Shown: piece by piece, positions 883 through 51,369 of the stretch
Numbering within the stretch: position 1 is the stretch's first letter
Layout: each line of letters begins with the position of its first letter
DNA from: Vicinamibacterales bacterium
GTDB lineage: Bacteria > Acidobacteriota > Vicinamibacteria > Vicinamibacterales > UBA8438
Direction: 5' to 3'
NCBI GenBank assembly: GCA_965246995.1
Contig: OZ252008.1
Coordinates: 562,323-626,322 of the forward strand
Length of the DNA: 64,000 nucleotides
Program-made: the position numbers and the translations under genes
Notes under the pieces: model-generated
Seen by the model: the letters and a program-made list of their open reading frames with translations, nothing else
What the model was told of the DNA's origin: nothing
Database searches by the model: none

Positions 883-887
883 GACTG

Positions 888-4749: not shown

Positions 4750-4808
4750 CTGGAGACTGGGTGGGTGAACATCGCGAAGAGGCGTTGAGCGAAACGGAGG
4801 GATGAGCG

Positions 4809-5351
4809 ATGGAAAGGCTCTTGGTGGCGGCACTGTTGCTGCGCTTGATTCGGGCGCAGAAGGAAGAAGGAAGCCCGGGCGGCGAGACCCATATTCAGAA
4901 GGCTGTCTATTTTCTGCAGGAGTTGATGCAAGTCCCGTTGAATTTTCGGTTCATCTTGTACCGATACGGACCGTATTCCTTTGAGCTTAGAGATGCGCTC
5001 ATGAGCTTGAGGGCGGATGGGTTGGTTCGACTTGAACCACAACGTTCGGTGGGAGCCAAGATCGTTCCGACGGAGCGCGGTGTGCGGTTCTTGGACTCGC
5101 GGCAAGCGGCGCTTGGGAAGTGGATGGCTAGAATCGAGTTCGTAGCAAAGGCGTTGGGAAGGAATGGCGCGCTCGGCTTGGAACGGCTTGGGACAGCGTA
5201 TTTCGTCACGCACAGGGCGACGATCGAAGCGACGGTTCAGGATCGAGTGAAGGAAGTGAGACGGCGTAAACTGCATATCACGGCGAACGACGCGAAGGAA
5301 GCGGTGGAGTGGGCGGACCGCATTACAGAGCAAGCGGCGACGGTCCGATAA
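4809..5351 (+). CDS. YwgA-like / winged-helix-type small protein, putative partner of the HD phosphohydrolase
   Basis: 180 aa. HIQKAVYFLQELMQVPLNFRFILYRYGPYSFELRDALMSLRADGLVRLE resembles the YwgA pattern (LQK.vY...F.f..YGPYS.EL) as I remember it. A GGAGGG ribosome-binding site lies 8 nt upstream. The 3' end overlaps gltX by 43 nt. Confidence 0.5.
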   Translation: MERLLVAALLLRLIRAQKEEGSPGGETHIQKAVYFLQELMQVPLNFRFILYRYGPYSFELRDALMSLRADGLVRLEPQRSVGAKIVPTERGVRFLDSRQAALGKWMARIEFVAKALGRNGALGLERLGTAYFVTHRATIEATVQDRVKEVRRRKLHITANDAKEAVEWADRITEQAATVR

Positions 5352-10565: not shown

Positions 10566-10711
10566 GCAGCCGTGCAGGGCGACCGCTCGGTTTGCGGATC
10601 AGGCTCCCCGGGCTTCGGCATGGAACTTGCGTACCTCCTTCGCATGTCGTTTTCCACTCACGGGAGGCGGCTGTCGCTACGGCCCCCGTTGCGGTAGCCT
10701 TGGAGGAAACG

Positions 10712-11272
10712 ATGATGCCGGACTTCTTGCGGATTGGCGCGGAGGTGATGATCGCGGTCGCGGCGATGCTCACCGTTCTCTGGCGTTTCAACGATTCGCT
10801 CGGTAAGGAGTTGCGCGCGGACATCAGGGTGCTTGGTACCGAGTTGCGCGGTGACATCAGCACTCTCGGTACCGAATTGCGCGGTGAAATCGGAGCACTC
10901 GATACCGAGTTGCGCGGTGAAATCGGGGCGCTCGATGGCAAGTTGTCCGGTGACATCAGGACACTCGGCACCGAGTTGCGTGGTGAAATCAAAACGCTCG
11001 GCACGGAGTTGCGCGGTGAAATCGGGGCACTCGATACCAGGTTCTGCGGTGAAATCGGCACGCTTGGCACGGAGTTGCGTGGTGACATCAGTGCTTTGCG
11101 TGTGGACAACAGAGAGCTGCTCGCCCGAGTGTCAAGAATTGAGGGGCTTCTTGAACTTCGCGCAGAACCGCGCACGAAGGTGGGCGCCACTCAGTCGTCG
11201 TCCGGGTCCAGTCCGGCGGACGATCGCGATGACCCCAAGGAGGATGCGGACAACGCTGTCGCGGGCGGTTAA
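10712..11272 (+). CDS. N-terminally membrane-anchored protein made of 11-residue (hendecad) tandem repeats
   Basis: The ATG at 10712 follows a GGAGGA site. A TM helix (FLRIGAEVMIAVAAMLTVLW) is followed by nine repeats of the type LGTELRGEIGA and an acidic disordered tail. The track ORF start at 10592 is probably too far upstream. Confidence 0.65.
   Translation: MMPDFLRIGAEVMIAVAAMLTVLWRFNDSLGKELRADIRVLGTELRGDISTLGTELRGEIGALDTELRGEIGALDGKLSGDIRTLGTELRGEIKTLGTELRGEIGALDTRFCGEIGTLGTELRGDISALRVDNRELLARVSRIEGLLELRAEPRTKVGATQSSSGSSPADDRDDPKEDADNAVAGG
10808..11104 (+). repeat. Nine tandem 33-bp repeats (consensus GAGTTGCGCGGTGAAATCGGGGCACTCGATACC), in frame in the CDS
   Basis: Unit boundaries counted by hand are 10808, 10841, 10874, 10907, 10940, 10973, 11006, 11039 and 11072. 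Confidence 0.9.
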
Positions 11273-11299
11273 CCTCGCGGATTCAGACCTTCTTCCTGC

Positions 11300-11728
11300 T
11301 CAGGCCGTCACCGTCTCGGGCTTGGGCGCGCCGGCGATCTTGCCCACGACCGCGCCTACCGCGACACACCACACGATCTCGAGGAGCGTCCAGGCCCAGG
11401 CGAGCGTGTAGGCGAAGTCGACTATCACGACGTTCAGAAACAGGTGGGTCGGAAAACCGATGAGCACGCCGGCATAGAGGCCGAAGATCGCTCCGCCCCC
11501 AGCTCCGTCGCGGAAGCAGGAGCGAACCCGCTGGTAGACCCAGACGAACACCGCTACCGAGACGAAATCGCCCACGGTGAGCGCGAGTGGTGAACCCTCG
11601 GTCCCGAACAGGGCGGTCTGCTGGACGTAGAAGGCATTTCCCAGCAGGAAGCCGTGAACGAGGAAGTCCAGGACGTTTGCGACGAGACCGCCAATCACAA
11701 TCGAGAGAACGATCTGCTTCTTGGTCAT
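11300..11728 (-). CDS. Small polytopic membrane protein (DUF1761-like?)
   Basis: 142 aa with four hydrophobic segments and no recognisable catalytic motif. Confidence 0.5.
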   Translation of the reverse strand: MTKKQIVLSIVIGGLVANVLDFLVHGFLLGNAFYVQQTALFGTEGSPLALTVGDFVSVAVFVWVYQRVRSCFRDGAGGGAIFGLYAGVLIGFPTHLFLNVVIVDFAYTLAWAWTLLEIVWCVAVGAVVGKIAGAPKPETVTA

Positions 11729-16979: not shown

Positions 16980-16984
16980 CCCAG

Positions 16985-17178
16985 GAGCCCGTGGTGAAAC
17001 CCCTGCTACATTCGAGCGGCGATGCATCCCGCCTGAACGGCGTTGCTCCTCGGACTGCGTTCAGTCCGCGGACTGCGTCAGTCCGCGGTCGCAATATGGC
17101 CAATATGCTCCCTCGTCGCGCCTTGTCAGCCGGGCGCCTCACCGCTCTCGGTGCGACGCGGGGTTTCACCACGGGCTC
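16985..17178 (+). mobile_element. MITE-like palindromic element, copy C (long form, 194 bp, two central hairpin modules)
   Basis: It has the same termini as copy A. The centre carries GGACTGCGTTCAGTCC and GGACTGCGTCAGTCC. Flanks are CCAG (16981-16984) and CTAG (17179-17182). It lies between trkA and trkH. Confidence 0.85.
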
Positions 17179-17192
17179 CTAGCACCCAGTCG

Positions 17193-20807: not shown

Positions 20808-21272
20808 ATGCCTGACGTCGTCCATACCAGCCGGATGCGGATCGAACGGGTGAAGGGCCCGGTCCGCCAAGCGTTTCTCGAGGGCTTCGACACGCCGATC
20901 CGCTTCGGCGTCCACGGGGGCATCAAGAAGTTCTACGGCGTCGAGCCTGAAGAGGAAGTCCCCGCGACGCTGGACTACATCGTCGGCGCAGTCGGCGGTT
21001 GACTGCTCGGGACACTTGCACGCGCACTGGAAGTGCGCAAAATTCCGGCGCCGCCCGACAAGATCAAGGCCCAGGTGGAGGGCGACATCGAGGCGATCGA
21101 CAATGTGCTGCGCATTACGCGCATCCGGGTCCGGTACGACCTGACGGTTCCGAGCGGGATGCGGGAGGCCGCCGAGCGCGCCGTCGCGAAGCACCCGAAG
21201 GGCTGCCCCGCTGCGAACAGCGTTGCCGGCTGCATAGACCTCGACATCACCGCCGACATCACCGAGGAGTAG
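20808..21272 (+). CDS. OsmC/YhfA-family peroxiredoxin-like protein with an in-frame TGA (21000-21002) at the conserved active-site Cys position; candidate selenoprotein
   Basis: Track ORFs 20766-21002 and 21033-21272 are in the same frame (both starts are divisible by 3) and are separated only by the TGA. The joined sequence is ...PATLDYIVGAVGG-[TGA]-LLGTLARALEVRKI...KHPKGCPAANSVAG. It parallels E. coli YhfA ...PSPMEMVLMAAGG-C-SAIDVVSIL...EKYCSVA (from memory). A GGGAGGGA site precedes the ATG at 20808. Confidence 0.6.
21022..21038 (+). promoter_or_regulatory. Candidate bacterial SECIS hairpin for the OsmC-like gene
   Basis: GCGCACU-GGA-AGUGCGC forms a perfect 7-bp stem. The G-rich apical loop starts 26 nt after the UGA. 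Confidence 0.4.
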
Positions 21273-25048: not shown

Positions 25049-26776
25049 ATGGTGATCATGTCCAGAAAGACACTGGCGGTGGCGGCGATGCTGGGAATCA
25101 CGCTGATCGGCTCCGACTTCCAAACGCAGGCGCAAACGCAGGATGCCCTCGGCCACGGCTACAGCCGCCCGGCCCGCAGCGTCCATGGCAGCCGTTCCGA
25201 GGTGATCGCCCCGAACGGTATGGTCGCGGCGAGCCAGCCGCTTGCCGCGCAGGTGGGCCTCGAGGTCCTCAAGTCGGGCGGCAACGCGATCGATGCCGCC
25301 GTCGCGGTCAACGCGATGCTCGGCCTGGTCGAGCCGCACATGAACGGGGTTGGCGGCGACCTCTTCGCCATCCTCTGGCACGCCGAGACCGAGCAGCTCT
25401 ATGCGCTGAACGGCACCGGGCGCGCGCCGTACGAGATCAGCCGCGAGACGCTGGTCAGCCAGGGCTACGAACGGATGCCGGGCGCCGGTCCGCTCACCTG
25501 GACGGTTCCGGGCGCGGTCGATGCCTGGTCGCAACTGCTCGAACGCTTCGGCACGATGGAGCTGGCCGACCTGCTCCAGCCCGCCATCGACTACGCGCGC
25601 AACGGCTTCCCGGTCAGCGAGATCATTCAGGGGCAGTGGTCCGGGTCGATGCCGTCCCTCCGCGAGTGGCCGACATCAGCCGCGACGTACCTGCCGAACG
25701 GCAGGCCGCCGGCTGTGGGCGAGCTGTTCAAGAACCCGCAGCTCGCGGACACCTACGAACAGGTCGCGCGCGGCGGCCGCGATGCGTTCTACCGCGGCGA
25801 GATCGCGCGGAAGATAGTCGCGTTCAGTGAAGCGAACGGCGGCTACTTCACGATGGCCGACTTCGAGGATCACACGTCCGAGTGGGTCGAGCCGGTCGGC
25901 ACCAACTACCGCGGCTACGACATCTGGGAGGTACCGCCCAACAGCTCCGGGATCCTCGCACTGATGATCCTGAACATCCTGGAGGGCTATGACATCGCGT
26001 CGCTCGGCCACAACAGCGCGGATGCGCTGCACCTCTTCGCGGAGGCGAAGAAGCTGGTCTGGGCGGATCGCAACACCTACGTCGCCGACGCGAACGCCAA
26101 CACGCTGCCGACGCAGCCGCTCATCTCGAAGCCGTATGCGGAATCGCGCCGCAAGATGATCGACAAGGGACGCGCCGCGACCGAGGTGACCCCCGGCAAC
26201 CCGTTCGAGCACAGCGACACCGTCTATCTGACCGTGGTCGACAAGGACCGGAACGCCATCTCGTTCATCGAGAGCATCTTCGGCGGTTTCGGCTCGAAGA
26301 TCGTGCCGGGCGACCTCGGCTTCGCGCTCCAGAACCGGGGTTCAGGCTTCTCCCTCGAGGAGGGGCACCTCAATTCGCTCGAGCCGCACAAGCGCTCGCT
26401 CCACACCAACATGCCGGGCTTCGTCACCAAGGACGGCAAGCCGTTCATGCCGTTCGGCGTGATGGGCGGTCCGATGCAGCCGCAGGGTCACTGGCAGATC
26501 CTGTCGAACATCATCGACCACGGCATGAACATCCAGGAAGCGGGCGACGCCGCGCGCGTGCGCCACAGCCCGAGCAGCTATCCGGGGGGCACGCTGGCCG
26601 TCGAGCCGGGCATCTCGGACGAAGTCATCGCGGAGCTCCGCCGCCGCGGCCACCATGTCGAACGGCAGGGTGGGGGCGGCATGGGGGGCTACCAGGCGAT
26701 CATGATCCACCCCGAAACCGGCATGCTCCACGGCGGGACCGATCCTCGCAAGGACGGTCTGGTGGCGGGGTACTAG
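25049..26776 (+). CDS. ggt: Gamma-glutamyltranspeptidase
   Basis: It has a signal peptide and GMVAASQPLAAQVGLEVLKSGGNAIDAAVA. The autoprocessing region reads HSDTVYLTVVDKDRNAISFIESIFGGFGS. The stop TAG (26774-26776) lies in the CTAG flank of MITE copy D. Confidence 0.9.
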   Translation: MVIMSRKTLAVAAMLGITLIGSDFQTQAQTQDALGHGYSRPARSVHGSRSEVIAPNGMVAASQPLAAQVGLEVLKSGGNAIDAAVAVNAMLGLVEPHMNGVGGDLFAILWHAETEQLYALNGTGRAPYEISRETLVSQGYERMPGAGPLTWTVPGAVDAWSQLLERFGTMELADLLQPAIDYARNGFPVSEIIQGQWSGSMPSLREWPTSAATYLPNGRPPAVGELFKNPQLADTYEQVARGGRDAFYRGEIARKIVAFSEANGGYFTMADFEDHTSEWVEPVGTNYRGYDIWEVPPNSSGILALMILNILEGYDIASLGHNSADALHLFAEAKKLVWADRNTYVADANANTLPTQPLISKPYAESRRKMIDKGRAATEVTPGNPFEHSDTVYLTVVDKDRNAISFIESIFGGFGSKIVPGDLGFALQNRGSGFSLEEGHLNSLEPHKRSLHTNMPGFVTKDGKPFMPFGVMGGPMQPQGHWQILSNIIDHGMNIQEAGDAARVRHSPSSYPGGTLAVEPGISDEVIAELRRRGHHVERQGGGGMGGYQAIMIHPETGMLHGGTDPRKDGLVAGY

Positions 26777-26952
26777 GAGCCCGTGGTGAAACCCCCGCTA
26801 CATTCGAGCGGCGATGCATCCCGCCTGAACGGCGTTGCTCCTCGGACTGTGGCAGTCCGCGGTCGTCATATGGCCAATATGCTCCCTCGTCGCGCCTTGT
26901 CAGGCGAGCGCCTCGCCGCTCTCGGTGCTACGCGGGGTTTCACCACGGACTC
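26777..26952 (+). mobile_element. MITE-like palindromic element, copy D (medium form, 176 bp, one central hairpin module)
   Basis: It has the same termini as the other copies and a central GGACTGTGGCAGTCC. It is flanked by CTAG (26773-26776) and CTAG (26953-26956). Confidence 0.85.
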
Positions 26953-28158
26953 CTAGTTCCACGGAGGGGTCCTCCCCAATTCCGCTGGCGCGAGGGACAA
27001 GTTGGGAAGAGCCGCGAGACGGGCCACGTCCGTGACCGCCAGGACTGTGATGTTGCGGTCCGCCGGGTAGGTGCTGTTCGTTGGACAGACGACGAACAGG
27101 TGATCGAGCCCGAGTGTGGCGGTAACGTTGCGCAACTGGGCGGTCACCCTGGGCGCCTCGCTGAACTTCACCTCGAATCCGATACGGCGGCCGCGGTGTA
27201 ACACGAGCAGGTCCAGCTCGCCGCCCCCGTGGGCCGCCCAGAACCACGCCTGAACGGGATCCAGGGCCGACAGGATCTGTTCGATCACGAAGCCTTCCCA
27301 GGATGGCCCGACACGCGGGTGGCTGAAGAGCTCGGCGTCGTTCCGGATCCCGAGCAACGCGTGCAGCAGACCGGTGTCGCGGAGGTAGACCTTCGGCGCC
27401 TTGACCTGGCGCTTGGCGACGTTCTCGTACCAGGGCTGGAGCTGGCGGACCATGAAGGCTCCGGTCAGCAGGTCCAGATAACCGCGGACCGTCTTGTCAG
27501 AGGCGCTGATCGAGCGGCCCAGGCTGGAGGCGTTCCAGGTCTGGCCGTGCCAGTGCGCGAGCATCGTCCAGAACCGCTCGAGGGCGGCGGCCCGGATGGT
27601 GATGCCCAATTGCGGGATGTCGCGTTCCAGGAACGTGCGTATGAACGCGCGGCGCCACGAGTGGCCGTCGTCATCCGTCGGCGCGAGATACGACCTCGGA
27701 AGTCCGCCGCGCAGCCAGAGCGTCCGCCAGGCGTCGGCGCCGGTCTCCGAGAGATCGAAGCCGGTCATATCGATGAACTCGACCCGGCCGGCGAGGGACT
27801 CGGATACAACCCGCACGATCCCGGGTGACGCGCTGCCCAGGATCAGGAAGCGCGTTCTCGCGCCGGGGCGGTCTGCCAGCACCCGCAGGACGTTGAAGAG
27901 GTGCGGCATCCGCTGGATTTCGTCCACCACAACCAAGCCGTCGAGCGCCCCGAGGACCAGCTCGGGATTGGCGATTCGGCGAACGTCCTGATTGGATTCC
28001 AGGTCAAGAAAGGTGGCGTTGCGCGTTGCCGCGAACTGCCGGGCGAGCGTCGTCTTGCCGCACTGCCGGGGTCCCAGCAGCGAGGTGACAGGCGCGCGGC
28101 GGGTTGCGGCGGCGAGTCGATCCAGGTAGTCGGAGCGGGCAACCAGGGTGTCTGACAC
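26953..28158 (-). CDS. AAA+ ATPase with a DUF4143-type C-terminal domain (COG1373-like)
   Basis: The Walker A motif is LLGPRQCGKTTLARQF and the Walker B region is LVVVDEIQ. 401 aa with a GTG start. The stop is the reverse TAG of the MITE flank. Confidence 0.75.
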   Translation of the reverse strand: MSDTLVARSDYLDRLAAATRRAPVTSLLGPRQCGKTTLARQFAATRNATFLDLESNQDVRRIANPELVLGALDGLVVVDEIQRMPHLFNVLRVLADRPGARTRFLILGSASPGIVRVVSESLAGRVEFIDMTGFDLSETGADAWRTLWLRGGLPRSYLAPTDDDGHSWRRAFIRTFLERDIPQLGITIRAAALERFWTMLAHWHGQTWNASSLGRSISASDKTVRGYLDLLTGAFMVRQLQPWYENVAKRQVKAPKVYLRDTGLLHALLGIRNDAELFSHPRVGPSWEGFVIEQILSALDPVQAWFWAAHGGGELDLLVLHRGRRIGFEVKFSEAPRVTAQLRNVTATLGLDHLFVVCPTNSTYPADRNITVLAVTDVARLAALPNLSLAPAELGRTPPWN

Positions 28159-28244: not shown

Positions 28245-29009
28245 CTATCGTTCCTGCGGCACGAAGACGTCCCGCGCGGGCATCTGCACCTGCGCGAGCG
28301 TGCTGGCGTTCATCACCGCGTCGGTCTCGATGATGCCGTTCTCCGCGAGCAGCCAGGCGGAGAGGGCGTAGACCTCGTCGTTGGCGAGGGTGCCGGGTGC
28401 GTTCGAGGGCATCGCTCTCCGGATGTAGTCGAAGAGCGTGGTGGCGTAGGGCCAGTAGTTCCCCACCGTGAACGGGACGTCGTCACCGTCGCCACGCCAT
28501 TCCTCGTAACGGGGGCCGAACGGCGGCGCGGTCCCCGGTTCGTAGCCGACGAGCGGTTCTGCGCTCATTCCTTCGCCGGCGCGGCCGTGGCAACTGGCGC
28601 AGTGGCGGAGGTAGATCGGCGCGCCGTCGGCGTGGGAGCCTTCGCCTTCCGGGAGGCCGGTGCCGTCCGGCATCACATCGATGTCCCACGCGGTGATCTC
28701 TTCGTGGGTGGCCTCGCGGCCGAAGCCGAAGCGGTCGGGATAGCCGGCCGGCGCTGTGGTGCCGACCGGCGCTGTGGTGCCGACCGGCACTGTGGTGCCG
28801 ACCGCCGCCGTCGTGTCGGCGGGCGCCGCATCGGTCATTGTTGCCGGCTCGGCGGCGGGCGGTGCGCTGTCCGCGCCCGTGCAACCGGCCGCGAGCACTG
28901 CGACAGCGAACAGCGTGGAGGCGAGACGCGTGAGCGCGAGATGCGTGAGGGATCCCGGCGTGGACGCCGGCGGACCATACGCCGGCGCACCGCGCGTTAT
29001 GCGTCCCAC
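28245..29009 (-). CDS. sorB: Cytochrome c subunit of sulfite dehydrogenase (lipoprotein-type signal)
   Basis: CASCHGRAGEG is the heme c site, and the lipobox-like segment is LFAVAVLAAGC. The proposed GTG start at 29009 overlaps the sorA stop. The longer track ORF (to 29504) overlaps sorA out of frame and is unlikely to be real. Confidence 0.65.
   Translation of the reverse strand: MGRITRGAPAYGPPASTPGSLTHLALTRLASTLFAVAVLAAGCTGADSAPPAAEPATMTDAAPADTTAAVGTTVPVGTTAPVGTTAPAGYPDRFGFGREATHEEITAWDIDVMPDGTGLPEGEGSHADGAPIYLRHCASCHGRAGEGMSAEPLVGYEPGTAPPFGPRYEEWRGDGDDVPFTVGNYWPYATTLFDYIRRAMPSNAPGTLANDEVYALSAWLLAENGIIETDAVMNASTLAQVQMPARDVFVPQER
28748..28801. repeat. Three tandem 18-bp repeats (CCGGCGCTGTGGTGCCGA) inside sorB
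   Basis: Units start at 28748, 28766 and 28784. On the minus strand they encode (V/A)GTT(V/A)P x3 in the linker after the lipobox. Confidence 0.8.
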
Positions 29010-30220
29010 GGTTCCTCCTCGCGGTAGAAGACGTGGCCGTCGGACTGAACACGCCAGGCGGTGATCGGGTTGAGGTGGTAGCGCCGGGCGCGGCGGCCTC
29101 TCTGGGCAAGGAGTTCCGCGCGCGTCGGCTGGACGTAGCCGGTATCGTCGGTCGCGCGGCTCATGATCTCGGTCTCGTTGCCATCCCACTGCCACAGGTG
29201 GCGGAACCGGGTGTGCGCCTGGCGGAGCACCGGCTCCTGCAGACGCGCCGGCTGCCAGGTGGCGCCGCCATCGGTGCTGGTGTCGACCTGGGCGATGGTT
29301 CCGCGGCCGGACCAGGCGATGCCCCGGAGCTCTATCCAGCCCGGCTCGATCACCTCGGGATACGCCGGCGACGTAATCACCGAGCGGGCGTCGAAGACAA
29401 AGCTGAAGCTCCGCGCTTTGCCGTCGGCCATCGGGTCGGTGTACTTCGACGTCTCCTCGCGGGTCATGAACGGCTGATCGGCCAGCTCGATCCGGCGCAG
29501 CCACTTGACGTTCGAGTTTCCCTCCCAGCCGGGGAGCAGCAGGCGCGCCGGGTAGCCCTGCGACGGGCGCAGCGATTCACCGTTCTGGGCGTAGGCGATC
29601 ATCGCGTCGTCCCACGCCTTCTCCATCGGGACGCTCCGCGTCATCACGGCGGCGTCCTGTCCTTCGGCCAGCAACCAGGAGGCGTCGGGACTCGCCCCCA
29701 CCTCGCGGAAGAGCGTAGCCAGGGTGACGCCGGTCCATTCGGTGGTCGCCGTCATGCCGCAGACATTCTGCGGCATGGTCTCGGGGCCAGCCGCCTGCGG
29801 GTAGTTGCCGGAGCACTCCAGGAAGCAGATGCGCGACGTCGCGGGAAAGCGTTTCAGTTCGTCGAGCGTGAGGATCATGGGCCGCTCGACCATGCCGTGG
29901 ATCAGGAGCTGGTAGTTGTCCGGGTCGATCGACGGCACGCCGGCGTGGTGACGCTCGAAGTGGACATCGGATGGCGTGATCATGCCGTGGAGGTCCTGGA
30001 GCGGCGTGCGGGAGGAACCGCGGGTGACGGAGCCGCGCGAGAGCGTCGCGTGCGGCGAGCGGTCGCCGAGCACGCTGGGAGGACCGCCGGGGGCCTTCGT
30101 TGTGTCGCCGGATTGGGCGAGGGCGTCGCGCGACGTGGGGAGTGTCGTGGCGGCGATGGCGGTGGCGGCGGTCGCGAGGAGACGGCGCCGGGTAATTGTC
30201 TTCGTGCTGCTGCGGGGCAT
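28997..30220 (-). CDS. sorA: Molybdopterin sulfite dehydrogenase/oxidase catalytic subunit with a Tat signal
   Basis: The twin-arginine signal is [25 protein letters not shown]...ICFLECSGN...[25 protein letters not shown] are SorA/SUOX-family motifs. Confidence 0.85.
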
Positions 30221-30285
30221 TGCGTCCTCCTGTCGTGCGACGCAGCCGGACGAAGTTCTCCGGCGGCGCCGCTTCCACTCCGCCG

Positions 30286-30516
30286 TTACGCGGTGGTCAA
30301 CGCCTTCAGGGCGTCAAGGACTTCCTGGGGTTCCGGGAAGCGTTCCTCCTTGTGCTTGGAGAAAATCATCTCGCCATCGGCGATGACGTCGAAGATGCCG
30401 TTGGTTCCCTCGATCAACTCGGCGTCGATATCGAACGCCTGCCTGATGTCGGCCGCCAGACTGGTGGCCCGGGGTCCGTACTTTCAACGGGTGCAGTAGG
30501 TAATCGAAATCTTCAT
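30286..30516 (-). CDS. SelW/Rdx-family (SelW-SelT-SelH-like) small redox protein with a CxxU motif; the in-frame TGA at 30484-30486 is read as selenocysteine
   Basis: Not in the ORF track. My translation is [10 protein letters not shown]-[TGA][65 protein letters not shown], 77 codons in total. A GGGAGGAG ribosome-binding site lies 10 nt upstream of the ATG at 30516. The Rdx family hallmarks are present (YCxxC/U near the N-terminus, G.FeV..dG..ifsk...gRFPe). Confidence 0.75.
30451..30469 (-). promoter_or_regulatory. Candidate bacterial SECIS hairpin for the SelW-like gene
   Basis: The mRNA reads GGCCACCA-GUC-UGGCGGCC, giving 7 base pairs and one A.C mismatch. The apical loop starts with GU, about 22 nt after the UGA. 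Confidence 0.45.
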
Positions 30517-30570
30517 GGGTGGCGCACTCCTCCCGTGAATCCTACTCGGAAGCGGGGCTCGCGTCGACAG

Positions 30571-32115
30571 CTAGCGCCGCCAGGCGAACAGGCGGGTGAG
30601 GAGCGCTTTCTGGCGCGCGCTGAAGCGGGATCGGCGGAGCTGGTTTGCGGTCCGGCGCCAGGCCTCGGCCTGTGTGGGGTAGGGGTGAATCGCGGCGCCG
30701 ATGGTCCCCAGTCCGGCCCTGGCCTGCATAGCGACGGTCACCTCGCTGATCAGGTTGCCGGCGTCGGCGGCGACTATTGTCGCGCCCAGGATCCGGTCGG
30801 TCCCCTGCTGGACGAGGACCCGCGCGAAACCGGCCTCCTCGCCATCGAGCAGCGCGCGGTCGACCTCCTCGAGCGGCTGCGTGAACGTCTCGACGGCAAG
30901 GCCTTTCTCGCGGGCATCCGCTTCGTACATCCCGACGTGCGCGATCTCGGGTTCGGTGTACGTGCACCAGGGGATGATCAGGCTGTCGGTCGTCCGGCGC
31001 CCGAGACCCAACGGGTGGGGGAAGAGGGCGTTCTGGATGACGATCTGCGCCATCGCATCGGCGGTATGCGTGAACTTGAAGGGGAAGCAGATATCGCCGG
31101 CAGCGTAGATGCGGGGGTTGCTCGTCCGGAGGTAGCTGTCGACGGTGACCCCCGCCCGGTCGAACGCCACGCCCGCCGCCTCCAGGCCGAGGTTCTCGAC
31201 GTTGGGAGCGCGCCCGACGCCGACGAGGATGGCATCCACGGTGACGTCGCTGGCGGCGCCGTCCAAGGTGTAGCGAATGTTCTTCTGGCCGCCGTTCGCC
31301 CCATCCGACTCGACGGACTCGACCTTGGCGTTGAATATGAAGCGGACCCCATCGTGTGCCATGCGGTCCTGCACGACCTCCGCCGCGTCCGGATCTTCGC
31401 GTGGGAGGATGTGATCGAACATTTCGATCAGCGTCACCTCGCTGCCGAAGCGGGCGAACGCCTGCGCCATCTCGCAACCGATCGGACCGGCCCCGATTAC
31501 GGCCAGGCGCGGCGGCAGCTCGGTCAGGGAGAAGACGGTTTCGTTCGTCAGGTAGCCGGCTTCGGCGAGGCCCGGGATCGGCGGCGCCGCGGCGCGCGCG
31601 CCGGTGCAGATCGCGCCGCGCGCAAACTGCAGGGTCGTATCGCCTACCTGCAGCGTGTCCGGTCCGGCGAAGCGTCCTTCGCCAAGGAAGATATCGACGC
31701 CGAGGCCGCGGTAGCGCTCGGCCGAATCGACATGGCTGATGGTTGCGCGGAGGCGGCGCATCCGTTCCATCGCGATACCGAAGTCGCGCTGGACGCCACC
31801 GGGAAAGGTGAGGCCGAAGCCCGCGCCGTCCTGGGCGCTCGCCCAGACGCGCGCCGCGCGGATCATTCCCTTCGAGGGGACGCAGCCGACGTTCAGGCAG
31901 TCGCCCCCCATCAGGTGGCGTTCGACCAGTGCGACTTTCGCGCCGAGGCCTGCCGCTACCGACGCGCTGATCAGGCCGGCGGTCCCGGCGCCAACCACCA
32001 CCAGGTTGTAGCGGCCGTCCGGCGTGGGGTTCTGCCAATCGGGCGGATGGACATTCGCCGTCAACTGGCGGTTGAAAAGGTCGTCAGGGGGCAGCAGGGA
32101 TTCGATTTCAGTCAC
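30571..32115 (-). CDS. FAD-dependent pyridine nucleotide-disulfide oxidoreductase (mercuric reductase/dihydrolipoamide dehydrogenase-like, no NmerA domain)
   Basis: [47 protein letters not shown] carries the redox-active CxxxxC. It also has an NAD site ([12 protein letters not shown]) and a dimerisation domain. 514 aa. Confidence 0.85.
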
Positions 32116-32178
32116 GGCGGATCACTATATGCTGTAGCGCTGCGGTGCCCCCTTCGAATCGGGGCGGAAGGAGAAACC

Positions 32179-32844
32179 ATGCTGTTCGCCAACCCGGCCA
32201 GCCTTCGCGTCCCGGATGCCGACACGGCACTGCCCGGCCGCGACGAGCCGATACCGGTTTCGCCGGAGCACTTCGTGCACGGCCGGCGTATCGTCCCGCC
32301 GTTCCCGGACGGCGCCGGGCAGGTGCTCTTCGGGATGGGTTGCTTCTGGGGCGCGGAGAAGGCGTTCTGGGATGTGGAAGGCGTCTACGCGACGGCCGTC
32401 GGCTACGCGGGCGGGCTGACGAAGAACGCCACCTACCGGGAGGTGTGCGGCGGACAGACCGGCCACGCCGAAGTGGTGCTCGTGGTGTACGAACCGGACG
32501 TCCTGCCGTTCGAGCGGCTGCTGACCCTCTTCTGGGAGCATCATGACCCGACGCAGGGGATGCGCCAGGGGAACGATGTCGGGACGCAGTACCGGTCGAC
32601 CATCTATGTCGCGGGCGCCGAGCGGCTCCGCGCCGCCGAGGCGTCGTGGGAGCGCTACGCGCCGCTCCTGGCCGAGGCCGGTTACGGGCCGGTCACGACC
32701 GAGATCCGCGACCTGCCCCCCTTCTACTACGCCGAGGAGTATCACCAGCAGTATCTCGCCAAGAACCCGTTCGGGTACTGCGGGCACGGCGGAACCGGCG
32801 TCACGTGTCCCGTCGGCGTCGTGAGGGAGACGACGGCGCGTTGA
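32179..32844 (+). CDS. msrA: Peptide methionine (S)-S-oxide reductase
   Basis: From the ATG at 32179 (GGAAGGAG site upstream) it reads ...[16 protein letters not shown]...GYAGG...[15 protein letters not shown]...FWEHHDPTQ. It is embedded in a long spurious track ORF (30196-32844). Confidence 0.9.
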
Positions 32845-36929: not shown

Positions 36930-38375
<1,446 letters not shown>

Positions 38376-39973
38376 GAGTTTGCGCCGCAGAAAAGGGATG
38401 CGACAATCGCAGACCATCCGACGACGAAAGGACCTGATGTCGACGACGTTCCGCCGCTACGCACCGGACCAGACCCTGTTGCTGCCAGCCGACATGCGGG
38501 AGTGGCTGCCGGAAGGCCACTTGGCGCATCACGTGAGCGACCTGGTGGACGGTTTGGATCTGACGGCGTTCTACGCGCCGTATGAGGGAGACGGACGGCG
38601 CAACGCGCCGTATGCGCCGCGGATGCTGGTGAAGGTGCTGATCTACGCGTATGCGACGGGGGTGTTTTCGTCGCGGGGGATCGCGAAGAAGCTGGAAGAG
38701 GACGTGGCGTTCCGGGTGCTGGCGGCGGGCAACTTTCCGCAACACCGGACGGTGTGCGAGTTCCGTCGGCGGCACCTTGGGGACTTCAAGAAACTGTTTG
38801 TGGAGGTGGTGCGTCTGGCGCAAGAGCTGGGGCTGGCGAGCTTCGGGAAGTTGTCGATAGACGGGACGAAGGTGCGGGCGAACGCGAGCAAGCGCAAGGC
38901 GATGAGCTACGGTCGGATGCAGGAGGAGGAGCGTCGCTTGGTCGGCGAGATTGACGCGCTGCTGGCGTCGGCGGACGACGCTGACGCGGCCGAGGATGCG
39001 CGGTTGGGGGCGGAGGTGCGCGGCGACGAGCTGCCGACGGAGTTGCGGCGGCGGGAGGATCGTCTGGCGGCGATCCGGGCGGCGAAGGCGCGTCTGGAGG
39101 CGGCGCAGCGGGCGGCGGACGACGCGCGCGGGCGGCAGCCGGGCGAGGGTCGGAACCCGCAGGGCGGTCGGCCGTACAAGCGGGGGTATGGCGAGCCGGA
39201 CGAGAAGGCGCAGAGCAACTTCACGGATCCGGACAGCGGGATCATGAAGACGAGCAACGAAGGGTTCCAGCAGTGCTACAACGCGCAGGTGGCGGTGGAT
39301 GGTGACCACCAGTTGGTGGTGGCGACCGACGTGACGGCGAACGCGAGTGACCAGGGCGGGTTGCCGGCGCTGCTCGACGCGGTGTCGGAGACGTTCGACG
39401 CGCAGCCGGAGACGGTGCTGGCCGACGCCGGGTATTGCAACGAGCGGGACTTGGTGGACCTGGAGACGCGGGGCGTCAACGGGTATGTGGCGCCGGGACG
39501 AGAGGGTAAGACGGCGGCGACCAGCGACCCCAAGAAGCATCCGGCGACGAGTCGCATGTCGGAGAAACTGGCGACGCGGGCGGGCCGGGCGGCGTATGCG
39601 GAACGCAAGTGGCTGTCGGAGGCCCCGCACGGCTGGATCAAGCACGTGCTGGGATTCCGGCGCTTCAGCCTGCGGGGACTCGCCACGGCGGGCGGCGAGT
39701 GGGACTTGGTGTGCCTGGCGTTGAACGTCAAACGCCTTCAGCCCCTGATGGGGATGTGAAACGCGAGGTATGAAGCCGGCAACGGCCGCGCAGCGGTGCG
39801 AATCGTGGCCGCTGGCGAGCCCCGGGGCGCGTCGGAGCCGATTTTGCCGACCGTTTCGCCGGCCGCCGAGAATCGACCTCGCCCGCTGACCGGCGAAGTC
39901 GCCCCGACGCGGTGCGTCAGGTTGTGGGCCGACGGCCAACTATCGTCCGGCGAATCTCCTGCGGCGCAGACTC
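38376..39973 (+). mobile_element. IS1182-family insertion sequence, copy 1 (1598 bp)
   Basis: The inverted termini are GAGTTTGCGCCGCAG and CTGCGGCGCAGACTC. It is flanked by CTAG (38372-38375) and CTAG (39974-39977) and contains a single transposase ORF. Confidence 0.85.
38437..39759 (+). CDS. IS1182-family DDE transposase
   Basis: MSTTFRRYAPDQTLLLPADMREWLPEGHLAHHV...RNAPYAPRMLVKVLIYAYATGVFSSRGIAKKLEEDVAFRVLAAGNFPQHRTVCEFRRRH...LSIDGTKVRANAS is the typical IS1182 N-terminal region and DDE region. Confidence 0.88.
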   Translation: MSTTFRRYAPDQTLLLPADMREWLPEGHLAHHVSDLVDGLDLTAFYAPYEGDGRRNAPYAPRMLVKVLIYAYATGVFSSRGIAKKLEEDVAFRVLAAGNFPQHRTVCEFRRRHLGDFKKLFVEVVRLAQELGLASFGKLSIDGTKVRANASKRKAMSYGRMQEEERRLVGEIDALLASADDADAAEDARLGAEVRGDELPTELRRREDRLAAIRAAKARLEAAQRAADDARGRQPGEGRNPQGGRPYKRGYGEPDEKAQSNFTDPDSGIMKTSNEGFQQCYNAQVAVDGDHQLVVATDVTANASDQGGLPALLDAVSETFDAQPETVLADAGYCNERDLVDLETRGVNGYVAPGREGKTAATSDPKKHPATSRMSEKLATRAGRAAYAERKWLSEAPHGWIKHVLGFRRFSLRGLATAGGEWDLVCLALNVKRLQPLMGM

Positions 39974-39977
39974 CTAG

Positions 39978-41681
39978 CCCGGATAATTCAGGAAGGGTCC
40001 GATTACGGTAGAAAAACAAGAGCCTCCGCGTGGTATAAATGGCTTATTCACAGACATTTACCCACCACGGAGGCCCTTGCGTGACGATCAATACGATACC
40101 ACAGACTGTCCTCTTTCCGGATCTCTTCGACAAGCCCCTCGTCGCGACGTTCGACCGCCGGCACGCGAGTTCCGATGGCGGCGCCGTCCTGCTCAAGGCG
40201 GCGGAGCGCGTGTATGGGTTGGTGGCGGGTTTCGCCCGGTGTCTGGTGGACCGGCGGGAGCCCGGGAAGATCCGGCACACGCTGGCGGAGTTGCTCGGCC
40301 AGCGGATCTTCGGCATTGCCTGCGGCCATCCCGATGGCAACGACGCCGACCACCTCGCCGACGACCCGATCCACAAGCTGTTGCTCGGGCGGGACCCGGT
40401 GGCGGGGGAGGCGTTGGCCTCGCAGCCGACGATCTCGCGGTTCGAGAACGGCGTTGGCCGGTCCGCCCTCTACGAGCTGGCGCGCGAGCTGGCGATGCGG
40501 GTCATCGAGCGGCATCAGCGCCGGCTGGACGGGCGGGCGCGGCGCATCACGATCGACCTGGATCCGACCGACGACGCGACGCACGGCGCCCAGCAGCTCA
40601 CCTTCTTCAACGGGCACTACGATCGCTGGTGCTACCTGCCGTTGCTGGCGTTTCTGACCTTCGACAAGGAACGCGAACAGTATCTGTGCGCGGCGGTGCT
40701 GCGGCCCGGCAATGTGCCGGCCCCCCGCGGGACCGTGGGCGTGTTGTGCCGGCTGCTGCCCCTGCTGCGGCAGGCCTTTCCCCAGGCGCGGTTTCTCGTC
40801 CGGCTCGACGGGGGCTTTGCGACACCGGAGATCTTCGACTTCCTGGATGCCGAGCCGCGGCTCGACTACGTGGTGGCCATGGCCAAGAACGCCGTGTTGC
40901 AGCGCCACGCCGAGCCCGCCCTGCTCGTGGCGCAGGCCCAGAGCGCGGCCAGCGGCCAGACCGCGCAGGTCTACGCCGACACCCGCTATCGGGCCCGCAC
41001 GTGGGACCGCGACCGCCGCGTCGTGATCAAGGCCGAGGTCGTCCGGCTCGGCGACCGCGCCCCGCGCGACAACCCGCGCTTCGTCGTGACCAATCTGCGC
41101 CAGACGCCGCGCTTCCTCTATGAACGGATCTACTGCGCCCGCGGCGACATCGAGAACCGCATCAAGGAACTGCTCGATGGCCTGCAGATCGACCGCACGA
41201 GCTGCTGTCGCTTCTGGGCCAATCAACTGCGCGTGCTGCTCACCGCCGCCGCCTACGTGCTGATGCAAGAACTCCGGCTGCGCGCGGCGCGCACCGCCTG
41301 TGCCCGCGCCCAGGTGACGTGGCTGCGCGACCGGCTCCTCAAATTGGGGGCGCACGTCGTCGGCTCGGTCCGCCGCGTGGTCCTGCACCTGCCGACCGCC
41401 ACGCCGGACCTCCACGCCTGGCGGCACATCGCGCTGGCACTCGGCGCCCGCCCCGGATAGACCCCAGACAGCGCCCGTCAGCCGCGCATACACGCATCCC
41501 AACGGCGAACCGAGCCCGCCCATGGCGAAGCCGTCCCTGGACGGCCCCATACCCAGGCCTTCCGCACCGGCAATCAGTGTCTATCCCGCCGGCGCTCGAC
41601 GAAAACGACGCCCGGCGGGCCGTGTGCGCGACGATCACACCGTCCGAGGGGCCATCTTGGAGCCTTCAGGAATAGTCCGGG
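39978..41681 (+). mobile_element. IS1380-family insertion sequence, copy 1 (1704 bp)
   Basis: The termini are imperfectly inverted (CCCGGATAATTCAGGAAGG and CCTTCAGGAATAGTCCGGG). It is flanked by CTAG (39974-39977) and CTAG (41682-41685). Confidence 0.8.
40039..41460 (+). CDS. IS1380-family DDE transposase
   Basis: ATFDRRHASSDGGAVLLKAAERVYGLVAGFARCL...IFGIACGHPDGNDADHLADDP...LASQPTISRFENGV...ITIDLDPTDD is the IS1380 pattern. Confidence 0.88.
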   Translation: MAYSQTFTHHGGPCVTINTIPQTVLFPDLFDKPLVATFDRRHASSDGGAVLLKAAERVYGLVAGFARCLVDRREPGKIRHTLAELLGQRIFGIACGHPDGNDADHLADDPIHKLLLGRDPVAGEALASQPTISRFENGVGRSALYELARELAMRVIERHQRRLDGRARRITIDLDPTDDATHGAQQLTFFNGHYDRWCYLPLLAFLTFDKEREQYLCAAVLRPGNVPAPRGTVGVLCRLLPLLRQAFPQARFLVRLDGGFATPEIFDFLDAEPRLDYVVAMAKNAVLQRHAEPALLVAQAQSAASGQTAQVYADTRYRARTWDRDRRVVIKAEVVRLGDRAPRDNPRFVVTNLRQTPRFLYERIYCARGDIENRIKELLDGLQIDRTSCCRFWANQLRVLLTAAAYVLMQELRLRAARTACARAQVTWLRDRLLKLGAHVVGSVRRVVLHLPTATPDLHAWRHIALALGARPG

Positions 41682-41685
41682 CTAG

Positions 41686-41861
41686 GAGTCCGTGGTGAAA
41701 CCCCGCGTAGCACCGAGAGCGGCGAGGCGCTCGCCTGACAAGGCGCGACGAGGGAGCATATTGGCCATATGACGACCGCGGACTGCCACAGTCCGAGGAG
41801 CAACGCCGTTCAGGCGGGATGCATCGCCGCTCGAATGTAGCAGGGGCTTCGCCACGGGCTC
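41686..41861 (-). mobile_element. MITE-like palindromic element, copy E (medium form, 176 bp, inverted orientation)
   Basis: It belongs to the same family, with a central GGACTGCCACAGTCC. Flanks are CTAG (41682-41685) and CTAA (41862-41865). Confidence 0.85.
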
Positions 41862-41887
41862 CTAAGCCGCTGGCCGCGCGAGGCCGG

Positions 41888-48106: not shown

Positions 48107-48220
48107 ACCGCCCACGGCCGCGGATTGCCGACAGTCGCCGAGTGTGCACTGTCCGTTTGGGTGTAGAATTGATGTTAATAGAAGGGTGGCTTATATACCG
48201 CGTTGAGGAGGATCTGGACG

Positions 48221-51158
48221 ATGAGAAAGACTCTGACAATCGCGCTCAGCCTTGCATTCGCGCTAACGGTCACGGCGAGCGCTTTTGCGCAGGGCCGCCA
48301 GACCGGAACCATCGGTGGCACCGCGGTGGACGCCCAGGGGCTTTCGCTCCCCGGTGTGACGATTACGGTCAGTTCGCCTTCCATGCAGGGGATGCGCACG
48401 GCTGTCAGTGATATCAACGGCAACTACTCGCTGCCGCAGCTCCCGCCGGGTGTGTACGCGGTGGTTTTCACGCTTTCCGGCTTCGGCGATGTCGAGGAGA
48501 TAGCCACGGTGCCGCTTGGCGGCGAGGTCGGCGTGAACGCGGTCATGGCGCCCGGCGGCGTCACCGAGACGGTGCAGGTAGTAGGCGTCGTCCCGGCGGA
48601 AATCCAGACGACGGAGACCGCCTCGAACATGGTGGTCGATGAAGTGAACGCGTTGCCGATGGGTCGGTCGCCGTTCGCTATCGCCGCGATTCAGCCCGGT
48701 CTGAATACGAACACGCCGAATGGCGGGCAGCTCGCGATCAACGGCGCGTTCGCGTACGACAACGTCTACCTGGTGGACGGTGTCGATACGAACGACAACC
48801 TGTTCGGGACGTCGAACGGGCTCTATGTCGCCGACGCGATCGAGGAGACGCAGGTACTCACCTCCGGGATCTCCGCCGAGTACGGTCGGTTCTCCGGCGG
48901 CGTCGTCAACGTCATCACGAAGAGCGGCGGCAACACGTTCTCGGGCAGTTGGCGCACGAATCTCGACAACCCGACGTGGGAAGGGCTCAACCCCTACGAG
49001 GTGGAGAACGAGGTGGAGCGGGAGGACATCCTGAACCAGACGCATGAGGCGACGCTCGGCGGACCGATCGCACGTGACCGCCTCTGGTTCTTCTCCTCGT
49101 ACCGCCGCGCGCGGACCACCACCAGCGACAGTTTCGCGCAGACCGCCATCTCGTACAACCATAGGACCAACAACGACCGGAACCAGATCAAGCTGACCGC
49201 CACGCTCGCGCCGGGACACACGCTGTCCGGCCAGTACATGCGGAACCAGACGTCCCGGTTCGACCGCCCCACCTTCGGCTTCAGCATCACGCCGGACACG
49301 CAGAACGACGCGGGGCGGCCGAACGACCTGTATGTCACGACCTACCGCGGCAGCCTGAGCCAGAACGTCTTTGCGGAGGCCCAGGTGTCGCAGAAGCGGC
49401 AGGGCTTCCGGGGCGGCGGCGGCACCGAGACCGCCATCGGGTACTCACCCTTCATCACCCTGACGCAGCAGTTGGGCCACTTCAACGGGCCCTACTTTGA
49501 CGCAACGGACCCGGAAGATCGGAACAACCTGCAGGTGACGGGCAACGTCACCTGGTACAAGGCGACGGAGTCATTCGGTTCGCACAACATCAAGGTGGGC
49601 TTCGAGAGCTACCGCTCGACCCGGACCGGCGGCAACTCGCAGTCGTCGACCGGCTTCGTCTTCGACGCCGACTACAAGGTGGATGCGAACGGCGACCCGG
49701 TCCTGGTCGACAACCGGCTGATCCCGGTGTTCTCTCAGTTCGACTCATTGATCGAGGACTGGAGGCCGGCGCGCGGGGCAAGGATCAACATCAGCACCAG
49801 GTCGTTCTTCATCAACGACAACTGGGCGTTCAACGATTACCTCTCGTTCAACCTCGGCGTGCGGGGTGAGATGGTCACGGGCGAGTCGACGCCGGGGGAC
49901 ATAACAACCGTCGACACGCGCTCGATTGTCCCGCGCGTCGCCGCGTCACTGGACCCGCTGGGTGACGGCCGCTTCTCGATTCAGGCGACCTACAGCCACT
50001 ACTCCGGGAAGTACAGCGAGGCGCAGTTCGCGGAGAACACGAACGTCGGGAAGCCGAGCCTGCTGTACCGTGTCTACACGGGTCCGACGCACGAGTGCCC
50101 GGGCCTGCCGAACGCGACGGCAGCGGACTGCCCCGGACTCGACCCCAACAACTACTTCACGGTCTTCGGCTCCTTTCCGACGCAGAATGTCTTCGCCGAC
50201 GACCGGCTCAATTCGCCCGTCACCAAGGAGTTCACGCTGTCGAGCGGCGCGACGCTCGGGACACGCGGGTACTTCCAGGCGACCTACGTCCGCCGCCGCT
50301 CGGGTAGCTTCGTGGAGGATTACCAGGACCTGACGACCGGGACGACGACGCTCATGGATCCGGACACCGGGGAGGAGTTCGGCACGTTCACGAACCAGGT
50401 CTTCGCGAACCCCGGCGACCTGGGGGACGACGCGGACGTCCTGCAGCGGAACTACGACGGGCTGCAGTTCGAGGCCCGGTACCAGCTCTTCGATAGGCTG
50501 TTGCTGAACGGTTCCACGACGATCCAGCTCAACAGCGAGGGGAACTTCGACGGCGAAGGAACCAACCAGCCTGGCGTCTCGTCGGTCTACGGCGATTGGC
50601 CGGAAGTGACGCCGGCGGATCGGTTCTATCCGTGGGGCCGCCTCGACGACTACCAGAAGCACCGGGTCCGCGTCTGGGGGGATCTACACCCTCGGCATGG
50701 GCTTCATGGGAGACCTGGATGTCGGCGGTTTCTGGCGTTACGACTCGGCCGAGAACTACAGCCTCGCGTCGAGCGCCTTCCGAGTGAGTTCCGAACAGCA
50801 GGCGATCCTCGACGAGCTCGGCTACATCGATGGTCCCACGTCTCGGACGCTCTACTACGACTCGGGTCGCGGGTCGGAGCCCTACAACGGCGTGGGTCGG
50901 TTCGACCTGTCGCTCCACTACGACATCCCGGTCTGGCGGGACCTGCGGCCGTGGCTGAAGTTCGATTGGTACAACGTGACCAATAACGACAAGCTGGTCC
51001 TCTTCAACACGACCATTCGGCATGACTCGAGCGGCCCGACGGACGCGTTGGGGATCCCGACCATGTACACCGAAGGGATCAACTTTGGCGAAGCGACCTC
51101 AGCCGGCCACTACCCGTCGGCACGGTCGTTCCTGATTTCCTTGGGCCTCCGTTTCTAG
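48221..51158 (+). CDS. TonB-dependent receptor-like outer-membrane protein with an N-terminal carboxypeptidase-regulatory-like domain, interrupted by a 1-nt frameshift in a G6 tract (50676-50681)
   Basis: It has a signal peptide, GTIGGTAVDAQGLSLPGVTITV...INGNYSLPQLPPGVY (the CarboxypepD_reg pattern) and a plug region. The frame-2 ORF decays into low-complexity text after ...HRVRVWG. The frame-0 ORF (50697-51158) continues IYTLGMGFMGDLDVGGFWRYDS... and ends in the barrel-type ...LISLGLRF. Confidence 0.75.
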
Positions 51159-51226: not shown

Positions 51227-51369
51227 TACGGCGCGCGTAGGTTTGTTGACGCCGACCGCGAGGATGTAGTGTCGGCTACTGGTCCCGATCCGCCTTTTCG
51301 AATCGGAGGCGGGCCGGCGCGGTCTCGTCGGACCGACCCACAGTTGGGTCCAGCGAGAGGAGCATTGCC

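Follow-up and report, generated by a model that had tools for sequence, protein, structure and literature searches.

Does the apparent coding gap between a molybdoenzyme gene and a flavin adenine dinucleotide (FAD)-dependent disulfide oxidoreductase gene on contig OZ252008.1 of a Vicinamibacterales bacterium contain a gene, and is the TGA that interrupts its reading frame decoded as selenocysteine (Sec)? We addressed this question in a 64,000-nt stretch of the contig (positions 562,323 to 626,322 of the forward strand), hereafter called the window, in which a preliminary description had proposed an unannotated selenoprotein gene of the SelW/SelT/SelH (Rdx) family. The sequence of the gap, its homologues and published family models together led us to conclude that it very probably is a real SelW-like selenoprotein gene of a Vicinamibacterales-type acidobacterium, with its in-frame UGA decoded as Sec. 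The family, the redox motif and the recoding mechanism are already known, having been described about 20 years ago, the type of Sec insertion sequence (SECIS) is standard, and the gene corrects an annotation.

On the minus strand, the gene consists of 77 codons including the stop (10 sense codons, the TGA, 65 sense codons and a TAA), giving a predicted product of 76 residues with the redox motif I-T-Y-C-T-R-U-K-Y at residues 5–13 (Table 1). Both this anatomy, with an identical translation, and the ribosome-binding site in front of the ATG had been claimed before, and both were recovered here. In the 80 homologous loci the start (ATG, GTG or TTG) keeps its place 10 codons ahead of the UGA, and no signal peptide was found in the SelW-like protein. 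The earlier statement that the stretch holds no open reading frame (ORF) stood only in part, since the mechanical ORF list contains two plus-strand ORFs spanning it (30196–32844 and 29033–30499) and a 43-aa in-frame TTG ORF inside the gene (30286–30417); it remained true that no real uninterrupted gene is present. The long plus-strand ORFs are antisense artefacts usual in DNA of 67% GC content. Gene callers miss or shorten SelW-like genes because calling halts at the UGA.

Rdx proteins have a thioredoxin-like fold. Family searches, run on the protein with U changed to C, confirmed the proposed membership: the Pfam hidden Markov model Rdx (PF10262) matched residues 2–71 of 76 with 69.8 bits (cut-off 22.6, E = 2.3e-19), and TIGR02174 (CXXU_selWTH) matched with 55 bits (cut-off 34.2). 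The top NCBIfam model, and the closest named one, was the NF041051 (SelTWH_Campy) equivalog at 82.4 bits (E = 2.1e-23), below its curated cut-off of 88; the protein is outside this equivalog and belongs only to the broader TIGR02174 subfamily. A profile of seven full-length homologues gave near full-length matches to eight solved Rdx chains, namely 2fa8 (Atu0228), 2ljk (MIEN1), 3dex, 2oka, 2ojl, 2obk, 2p0g and 2npb (mouse SelW). In the printed profile alignments, the CxxU column fell on the CxxC of 2fa8 and 2ljk, with the UGA aligned to the second Cys, which bears out the view that the TGA sits exactly at the second redox position of the motif. C8 and the U column were invariant in the homologue alignment. 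The predicted product, a small redox protein of the cytoplasm, would fall in the SelW-like branch of Rdx (SelW/SelT/SelH) proteins and have a thioredoxin-like fold, for which the matches to solved chains give indirect support.

Conservation of the TGA was the first line of evidence for its decoding. An initial protein search returned six matches of 45–61 aa, each covering only the C-terminal 54–75% of the query. The DNA upstream of these six metagenomic homologues reads, in frame, SITYC-x-x-TGA-[KN]Y with a start codon ahead, indicating that the short entries were gene calls cut at the TGA and that the TGA occupies this column in 6/6 of them. A genome scan limited to one genome per species (GTDB representatives) yielded 80 loci, 79 of which, from at least seven phyla, carried TGA at the Sec column; the sole exception, L029, had a three-codon deletion there. 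The closest relatives were Vicinamibacteraceae/Vicinamibacterales metagenome-assembled genomes (MAGs) of the Acidobacteriota (89, 88, 80 and 75% identity), and more distant SelW-like members came from Planctomycetota, Myxococcota, Desulfobacterota, Spirochaetota, Verrucomicrobiota, Nitrospinota and Thermoanaerobaculaceae. The protein was conserved on both sides of the TGA with flanking residues invariant or nearly so, and I-x-Y-C-x-x-U-[KN]-Y-x-P around the UGA was among its best-conserved parts. The same stop in the same column of 79/80 genomes, together with the covarying hairpin described below, supports the earlier argument that a chance stop at this residue is unlikely.

The final profile search collected 392 database proteins, most of those listed being shortened (51–67 aa) and many of the named entries already bearing the titles ‘Rdx family protein’, ‘SelT/SelW/SelH family protein’ or ‘selenoprotein W-related’. 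The Sec column of 25 full-length entries contained W (14), Cys (6), R (2), G (1) or small deletions (2). The W residues probably represent TGA rendered as Trp by gene callers. Cys was found in P0127, P0132, P0133, P0144, P0146 and P0174 as well as in the solved Cys-type homologues. TGA being near-universal in the genomes and Cys confined to a minority of the database homologues, the column reads as a classical Sec/Cys pair in which the predicted Sec is dominant, in line with what PMC1794560 says of SelW-like proteins.

Rare homologues have lost the Sec codon and gained no Cys: L029 (OZ219745.1, 6001–6219), P0137, P0139, P0128, P0141 and P0142. Some of these losses are three-codon deletions removing x-U-x (CTH-LPRA, CG-YLPRA) and others are replacements by R or G. 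Such copies, devoid of both Sec and Cys, could be inactivated or could be assembly errors.

The second line of evidence was an RNA hairpin directly downstream of the UGA. Its core, GGCCACCA-GUC-UGGCGGCC at 30469–30451, forms 5′-GGCC-A-CCA [GUC] UGG-C-GGCC-3′, extended in the window sequence by one extra C-G pair, with the loop G-U at 30461–30460 and the loop G 22 nt past the UGA. A hairpin with a GU-initiated loop had been proposed here, and the alignment of 74 distinct sequences, gapless from the UGA onward, showed it conserved in register, with the consensus 5′-GGCC-N-CCA [GUY] UGG-C-GGCC-3′ at columns 18–36 and with loop G26 and U27 invariant. Pair 24–30 was never broken (CG 71, GC 2, UA 1), and pair 25–29 was AU in 58 sequences and GU in 16. 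Pair 21–33 was CG in 55, GC in 8, UA in 6, GU in 2, AU in 1 and UG in 1, with 1 broken, and pair 18–36 was GC in 54, AU in 5, GU in 3 and CG in 1, with 11 unpaired. A 1x1 internal mismatch in the stem was conserved, a G-C pair replacing it in about a third of the sequences. The covariation score of 0.180 exceeded the shuffle mean of 0.082 and was reached by 0/500 shuffles; it was at most 0.057 when the hairpin partners were slid. RNAalifold recovered the core pairs independently.

The covariation is not explicable by selection on the protein, as the two sides of pair 21–33 are wobble positions of Ala codons that changed together (GCC/GCG, GCU/GCA, GCA/GCU and GCG/GCC). Wobble entropy at codons 18–20 was 0.27, 0.00 and 0.27 bits, compared with about 0.9–1.9 bits at other invariant four-fold sites, and the wobble base of codon 18 was frozen despite variation of its amino acid (S/T/A). 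The hairpin has a stem of 7–8 bp, an A-[GUC]-U loop and an energy of −10.1 to −11.5 kcal/mol. The bacterial SECIS (bSECIS) model quoted in PMC13188914 has four criteria: a loop of 3–9 nt on a stem of 4–16 bp; a G within the first two loop nucleotides, as a rule N1-G-[G|U]-N-N2; spacing of 16–37 nt; and a minimum free energy (MFE) of ≤ −7.5 kcal/mol. On all four the SelW-like hairpin agrees with this published model.

If the standard bacterial mechanism applies, the hairpin, located 15–33 nt downstream of the UGA, would make its A-[GUC]-U apex available to the complex SelB-GTP-Sec-tRNA(Sec) during the time that the ribosome is on this codon, and SelB would deliver Sec in competition with release factor 2. 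The C-x-x-U of the product would cycle between the selenol/thiol and selenenylsulfide forms, as in other Rdx proteins.

A third line of evidence came from a search of the window for TGAs that lie in frame between two stretches of coding signal, which found an OsmC-like gene of 154 residues that is a probable second selenoprotein gene. Its UGA, at codon 65 in the motif VGAVGG-U-LLGTL, stands where OsmC/Ohr proteins have their conserved catalytic Cys; another Cys is part of GCPAANS. With U read as C, the Pfam OsmC model matched across the U with 44.6 bits (cut-off 27.5). The UGA is followed at 26 nt by a hairpin of 7 bp with a U-[GGA]-A loop (−11.2 kcal/mol). TGA was found in the same column in 5/5 orthologues found in Vicinamibacterales loci, and database homologues were split at the TGA site or had C or W there. 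The model NF041052, ‘OsmC-related (seleno)protein’, gave 27 bits against a cut-off of 95; with the Pfam model passed and this one far missed, the protein may represent a distinct Sec-containing OsmC subfamily. OsmC-like proteins as such are a published selenoprotein family, according to PMC1088965, PMC2398784 and PMC13188914.

That each of two independent genes within 64 kb bears the complete Sec signature makes it very likely that the organism decodes Sec. Acidobacteria are recorded among organisms with selenoproteins or Sec decoding in PMC1794560, and our literature search on selenocysteine in Vicinamibacter found nothing relevant. Beyond the window, tblastn with E. coli SelD, SelA and SelB over the homologue loci gave SelD in L086 as the sole match. 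In this Desulforhabdus MAG, selD (151–1062, minus strand; 45% identical to E. coli SelD) adjoins the divergent SelW-like gene (1336–1548, plus strand). ARAGORN detected no tRNA-Sec in any of the homologue loci.

Several results weigh against this picture. A Pfam scan of about 45 ORFs of the window detected none of selA, selB and selD, tblastn with E. coli SelA, SelB and SelD found nothing in the window, and ARAGORN found no tRNA-Sec in it. These absences are uninformative because the window is 64 kb out of several Mb. The single-sequence MFE fold adopted a shifted register with a CACCA loop lacking the loop G, and its z of −1.05 relative to shuffles (47 nt) was not significant. An Rfam search of the whole window at the gathering threshold and a permissive one of 30380–30540 identified no SECIS family; what they returned were chance matches to miRNAs and pseudoknots. 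It is the comparative data that carry the SECIS assignment, and they favour the GUC-loop hairpin over the CACCA-loop register, which was rejected. Finally, co-transcription of the SelW-like gene with its flavoprotein, SoxC and cytochrome c neighbours (see below) is probable, a view drawn from spacing, strand and synteny only.

The lack of Sec-machinery genes in the window would also suit a UGA at which a suppressor or tRNA(Sec)-like tRNA inserts Cys or some other residue instead, yielding a CxxC product. Candidates are the selC*-type tRNA-Cys and the allo-tRNAs known from Deltaproteobacteria and Acidobacteria: PMC5389517 reports opal-suppressor tRNA-Cys species that resemble tRNA(Sec), as well as allo-tRNAs of Acidobacteria that are possible nonsense suppressors. 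We nevertheless regard such recoding as very improbable. A SelB-type hairpin with an invariant G-U loop, kept across seven phyla, is what SelB-dependent Sec insertion would be expected to leave, and SelW-like proteins are an established selenoprotein family. Keeping TGA and a SECIS in 79/80 genomes just to insert Cys would be unparsimonious, as TGY suffices and does occur in a minority. The sole tRNA call in the window, an 88-nt ‘tRNA-Gly (ccc)’ reported by ARAGORN at 54450–54537 (plus strand), is itself doubtful: it has its anticodon at position 30, lies inside a 767-codon coding-like ORF and had no tRNA match in Rfam, and it is most likely a false positive. A genetic code with TGA as a sense codon (table 4/25) was ruled out, TGA being the stop of 18/40 coding-like ORFs of the window.

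It is most improbable that the gene is a pseudogene or contains a sequencing error, in which case the TGA would be either a genuine premature stop or a wrong base call and the full-length protein would not be made. A single window cannot by itself exclude a base-call error, and the site does sometimes change, to R, G or small deletions, in P0128, P0141, P0137, P0139 and L029. Against this, the same TGA recurs in 79/80 independent assemblies and in 6/6 metagenomic homologues, the RNA hairpin is co-conserved and covarying, and the start codon, the N-terminal 10 codons and the 65 downstream codons are all under purifying selection. Public gene calls of the homologues, 45–67-aa proteins starting past the UGA, and the in-frame TTG ORF at 30417–30286 would fit a leader peptide of 10 residues that ends at the UGA and a separate protein of 43–65 residues made from an internal start. 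This, too, is very unlikely: the internal starts picked by gene callers are at differing, non-conserved positions, the residues flanking the UGA are among the best conserved of the protein, and the shortened products would be without the fold-defining strand beta-1 and CxxC/U, whereas the family-model and PDB alignments cover residues 2–71. Decoding of the UGA as Sec thus remains by far the preferred reading of the SelW-like gene.

Table 1. Coordinates of the SelW-like gene, its neighbours and other features in the window
Feature	Position	Strand	Basis
SelW-like (Rdx family) selenoprotein gene	30286..30516	−	Translation, PF10262, TIGR02174, solved-structure profile match
Shine-Dalgarno GGGAGGAG	30527..30534	−	Sequence reading; 10-nt spacer to ATG
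SelW-like start codon ATG	30514–30516	−	Sequence reading
In-frame UGA, codon 11, second redox position of C-x-x-U, read as Sec	30484..30486	−	
Bacterial SECIS-like hairpin	30450..30471	−	Covariation, bSECIS criteria
SelW-like stop TAA	30286–30288	−	Sequence reading
Class I flavoprotein disulfide oxidoreductase, active site GGDCLNVGC	30571..32115	−	Pyr_redox_2, Pyr_redox, Pyr_redox_dim
SoxC-type sulfite dehydrogenase (Mo cofactor), twin-arginine signal TRRRLL	28997..30220	−	Oxidored_molyb, Mo-co_dimer
Cytochrome c (SoxD-like partner), start approximate	28245..28990	−	Cytochrom_C, Cytochrome_CBB3 in C-terminal part
msrA (peptide methionine sulfoxide reductase), divergent; matched ORF segment	32299..32844	+	PMSR 196.8 bits, TIGR00401 209 bits
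OsmC-like probable selenoprotein gene, 154 residues	20808–21272	+	Ribosome-binding site GGGAGGGAG, TGA, hairpin, relatives
OsmC-like in-frame TGA, codon 65	21000–21002	+	Motif VGAVGG-U-LLGTL
OsmC-like hairpin, 7 bp, U-[GGA]-A loop	21022–21038	+	26 nt past UGA, −11.2 kcal/mol
MITE-like repeat copies (rc, reverse complement)	2177–2343, 4587–4751 (rc), 16983–17183, 26773–26956, 41681–41868 (rc), 61732–61899		

The SelW-like gene lies in a string of genes on the same strand. The flavoprotein upstream, claimed earlier as a FAD-dependent disulfide oxidoreductase, was confirmed as such by NF004991, ‘FAD-containing oxidoreductase’ (769.5 bits, cut-off 620), and its identity as MerA was rejected (378.9 bits against a cut-off of 454). 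The molybdenum (Mo) enzyme downstream, named SorA in the preliminary description, turned out to be of SoxC type, scoring 492.9 bits with TIGR04555 (SoxC; cut-off 420) and only 151 bits as SorA (cut-off 600). The flavoprotein stop is 54 nt before the SelW-like ATG, the SoxC ATG is 65 nt past the SelW-like stop, and the cytochrome c gene, found downstream of SoxC in 16 loci, is the last of the string. No terminator-like site was detected in the 54- or 65-nt gap; the only two terminator-like matches (30371–30388) were inside the coding sequence and at chance frequency. The order flavoprotein, Rdx, SoxC, cytochrome c was repeated in 16–19 Acidobacteriota loci, the flavoprotein adjoining Rdx in 19 of them and SoxC following Rdx in 16 Vicinamibacterales-type genome loci and in the metagenome contig L003. 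The divergent msrA gene was syntenic in 19 loci. In the portions of the SelW-like literature available to us, we found no mention of this string.

Clustering of neighbours over 86 loci found no partner gene common across phyla, and a universal operon partner of the SelW-like gene was rejected. The largest neighbour cluster arose artefactually from ORFs that overlap Rdx on its opposite strand, and the neighbours outside the Acidobacteriota, inspected by eye, were permease-like, GGDEF/EAL sensor-like, CCA-adding-like and dienelactone-hydrolase-like. Since no neighbour is common to the loci of Planctomycetota, Myxococcota or other groups, the string may reflect shared ancestry rather than functional coupling. 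The SoxC-type enzyme is exported by the twin-arginine translocation pathway and the SelW-like protein has no signal peptide, which would leave the flavoprotein as the sole plausible direct partner. The conserved adjacency of the two genes within one order (19 Acidobacteriota loci) is the basis for a tentative and, in our estimate, unlikely idea that in Vicinamibacterales the SelW-like protein is a dedicated redox partner of the co-transcribed NF004991-type flavoprotein, electrons passing from NAD(P)H to FAD, to the Cys-Cys pair of the reductase and to the Cys-Sec pair. Such a relay might feed MsrA or another thiol-dependent repair enzyme and, if true, would be the first functional handle on bacterial SelW-like proteins.

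Other features of the window were recorded in passing. An intergenic repeat of 165–200 bp resembling a miniature inverted-repeat transposable element (MITE) occurs in at least six copies that are 85–98% identical. The element is bounded by terminal inverted repeats of about 24 bp (TAGGAGCCCGTGGTGAAACCCC ... GGGGTTTCACCACGGGCTCCTA) and has an internal insertion that varies its length; Rfam had no match for it. A low-GC region (3223–5270, 56% against 67% for the window) contains a 415-codon HD-domain ORF (3239–4483; HD and HD_assoc_2), and its location between two inverted MITE-like copies points to a cassette that was mobilised or acquired recently. DDE transposase genes of the same two Pfam types (DUF772/DDE_Tnp_1 and DDE_Tnp_1_4) form two pairs, at 38365–41460 and 58605–61531, which lie about 20 kb apart and are not near-identical in DNA; a MITE-like copy is found just beyond each (41681–41868 and 61732–61899). 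An AAA_14/DUF4143 ATPase gene (26953–28158, minus strand) separates the gamma-glutamyltranspeptidase and cytochrome c genes, which adjoin each other in the closest relatives L010, L011 and L013. With one MITE-like copy (26773–26956) abutting it, this ATPase gene is probably an insertion specific to the genome of the window. Downstream of a CarboxypepD_reg/OMP beta-barrel gene (48182–50986), two adjacent plus-strand ORFs of about 770 codons (51250–53574 and 53538–55838) gave no Pfam match and have paralogous C-terminal regions (53149–53558 and 55419–55825, 75% DNA identity). Within a stretch that has no coding-like ORF (10598–11300) lies a tandem repeat (10799–11090) whose unit recurs about every 99 bp, with 79% identity between offset copies.

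The novelty of the SelW-like gene is modest and consists of the host lineage, the local gene string, the covariation-supported SECIS alignment and the accompanying candidate OsmC-like selenoprotein. Its practical value is in correcting a systematic annotation error, because most database members of the subfamily, entered as ‘Rdx family’ or ‘hypothetical’ proteins, are N-terminally shortened to 51–67 aa, and so lack the catalytic CxxU motif, or have Trp at the Sec position. The 74-sequence alignment could also be the starting point of a covariance model of such bacterial SECIS elements. At least two predicted selenoprotein genes in Vicinamibacterales-type Acidobacteriota, which are abundant in soil and sediment, would imply that Sec decoding is a trait of the lineage.

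Comparison with known systems places the gene among well-described relatives. Like the consensus bacterial SECIS of the E. coli fdhF type, the SelW-like hairpin is directly 3′ of the UGA within the coding sequence, at a spacing of 22 nt, and combines the small N1-G-U-N-N2 loop with a 7–8-bp stem and an MFE under −7.5 kcal/mol; unlike it, the stem is family-specific and doubles as the A-[S/T/A]-S-L-A-A codons. The Cys-type bacterial Rdx proteins (2fa8 Atu0228, 3dex SAV_2001, 2oka, 2ojl, 2obk and 2p0g) belong to the same family (E = 8.5e-12 to 1.6e-6) and align over residues 2–71 with CxxU on CxxC, but are longer (about 103–108 aa), have Cys in place of Sec, need no SECIS and score well below the close Sec-containing homologues (64–74 bits). 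Mammalian SelW (2npb) and MIEN1/C17orf37 (2ljk) share the Rdx family and have CxxU (SelW) or CxxC (MIEN1) at the same position, although SelW is remote in sequence (20.8 bits) and, according to the legend of Figure 7 in PMC1088965, eukaryotic SelW uses a 3′-untranslated-region SECIS of an entirely different type.

The nearest counterparts are the SelW-like proteins of the Sargasso Sea and Global Ocean Sampling (GOS) metagenomes. PMC1088965, PMC2398784 and PMC1794560 present SelW-like CxxU proteins as established bacterial selenoproteins with few Cys homologues, and PMC1794560 considers Sec possibly ancestral in them. The former two describe them as the most abundant prokaryotic selenoprotein family, with 48 Sec and 7 Cys forms in the Sargasso Sea and 427 and 56 in GOS. 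The role of bacterial SelW-like proteins is still called unclear in this literature. The metagenomic proteins (PF10262, former PF05169; TIGR02174) have in common with the product of the window gene a size of about 75 aa and an N-terminal C-x-x-U, and their genes likewise have the UGA in frame and, after it, a bacterial SECIS hairpin whose small apical loop contains a G. We found nothing essential to distinguish the window copy from them; it comes from a high-GC Vicinamibacterales-type acidobacterium and sits in a lineage-specific gene string.

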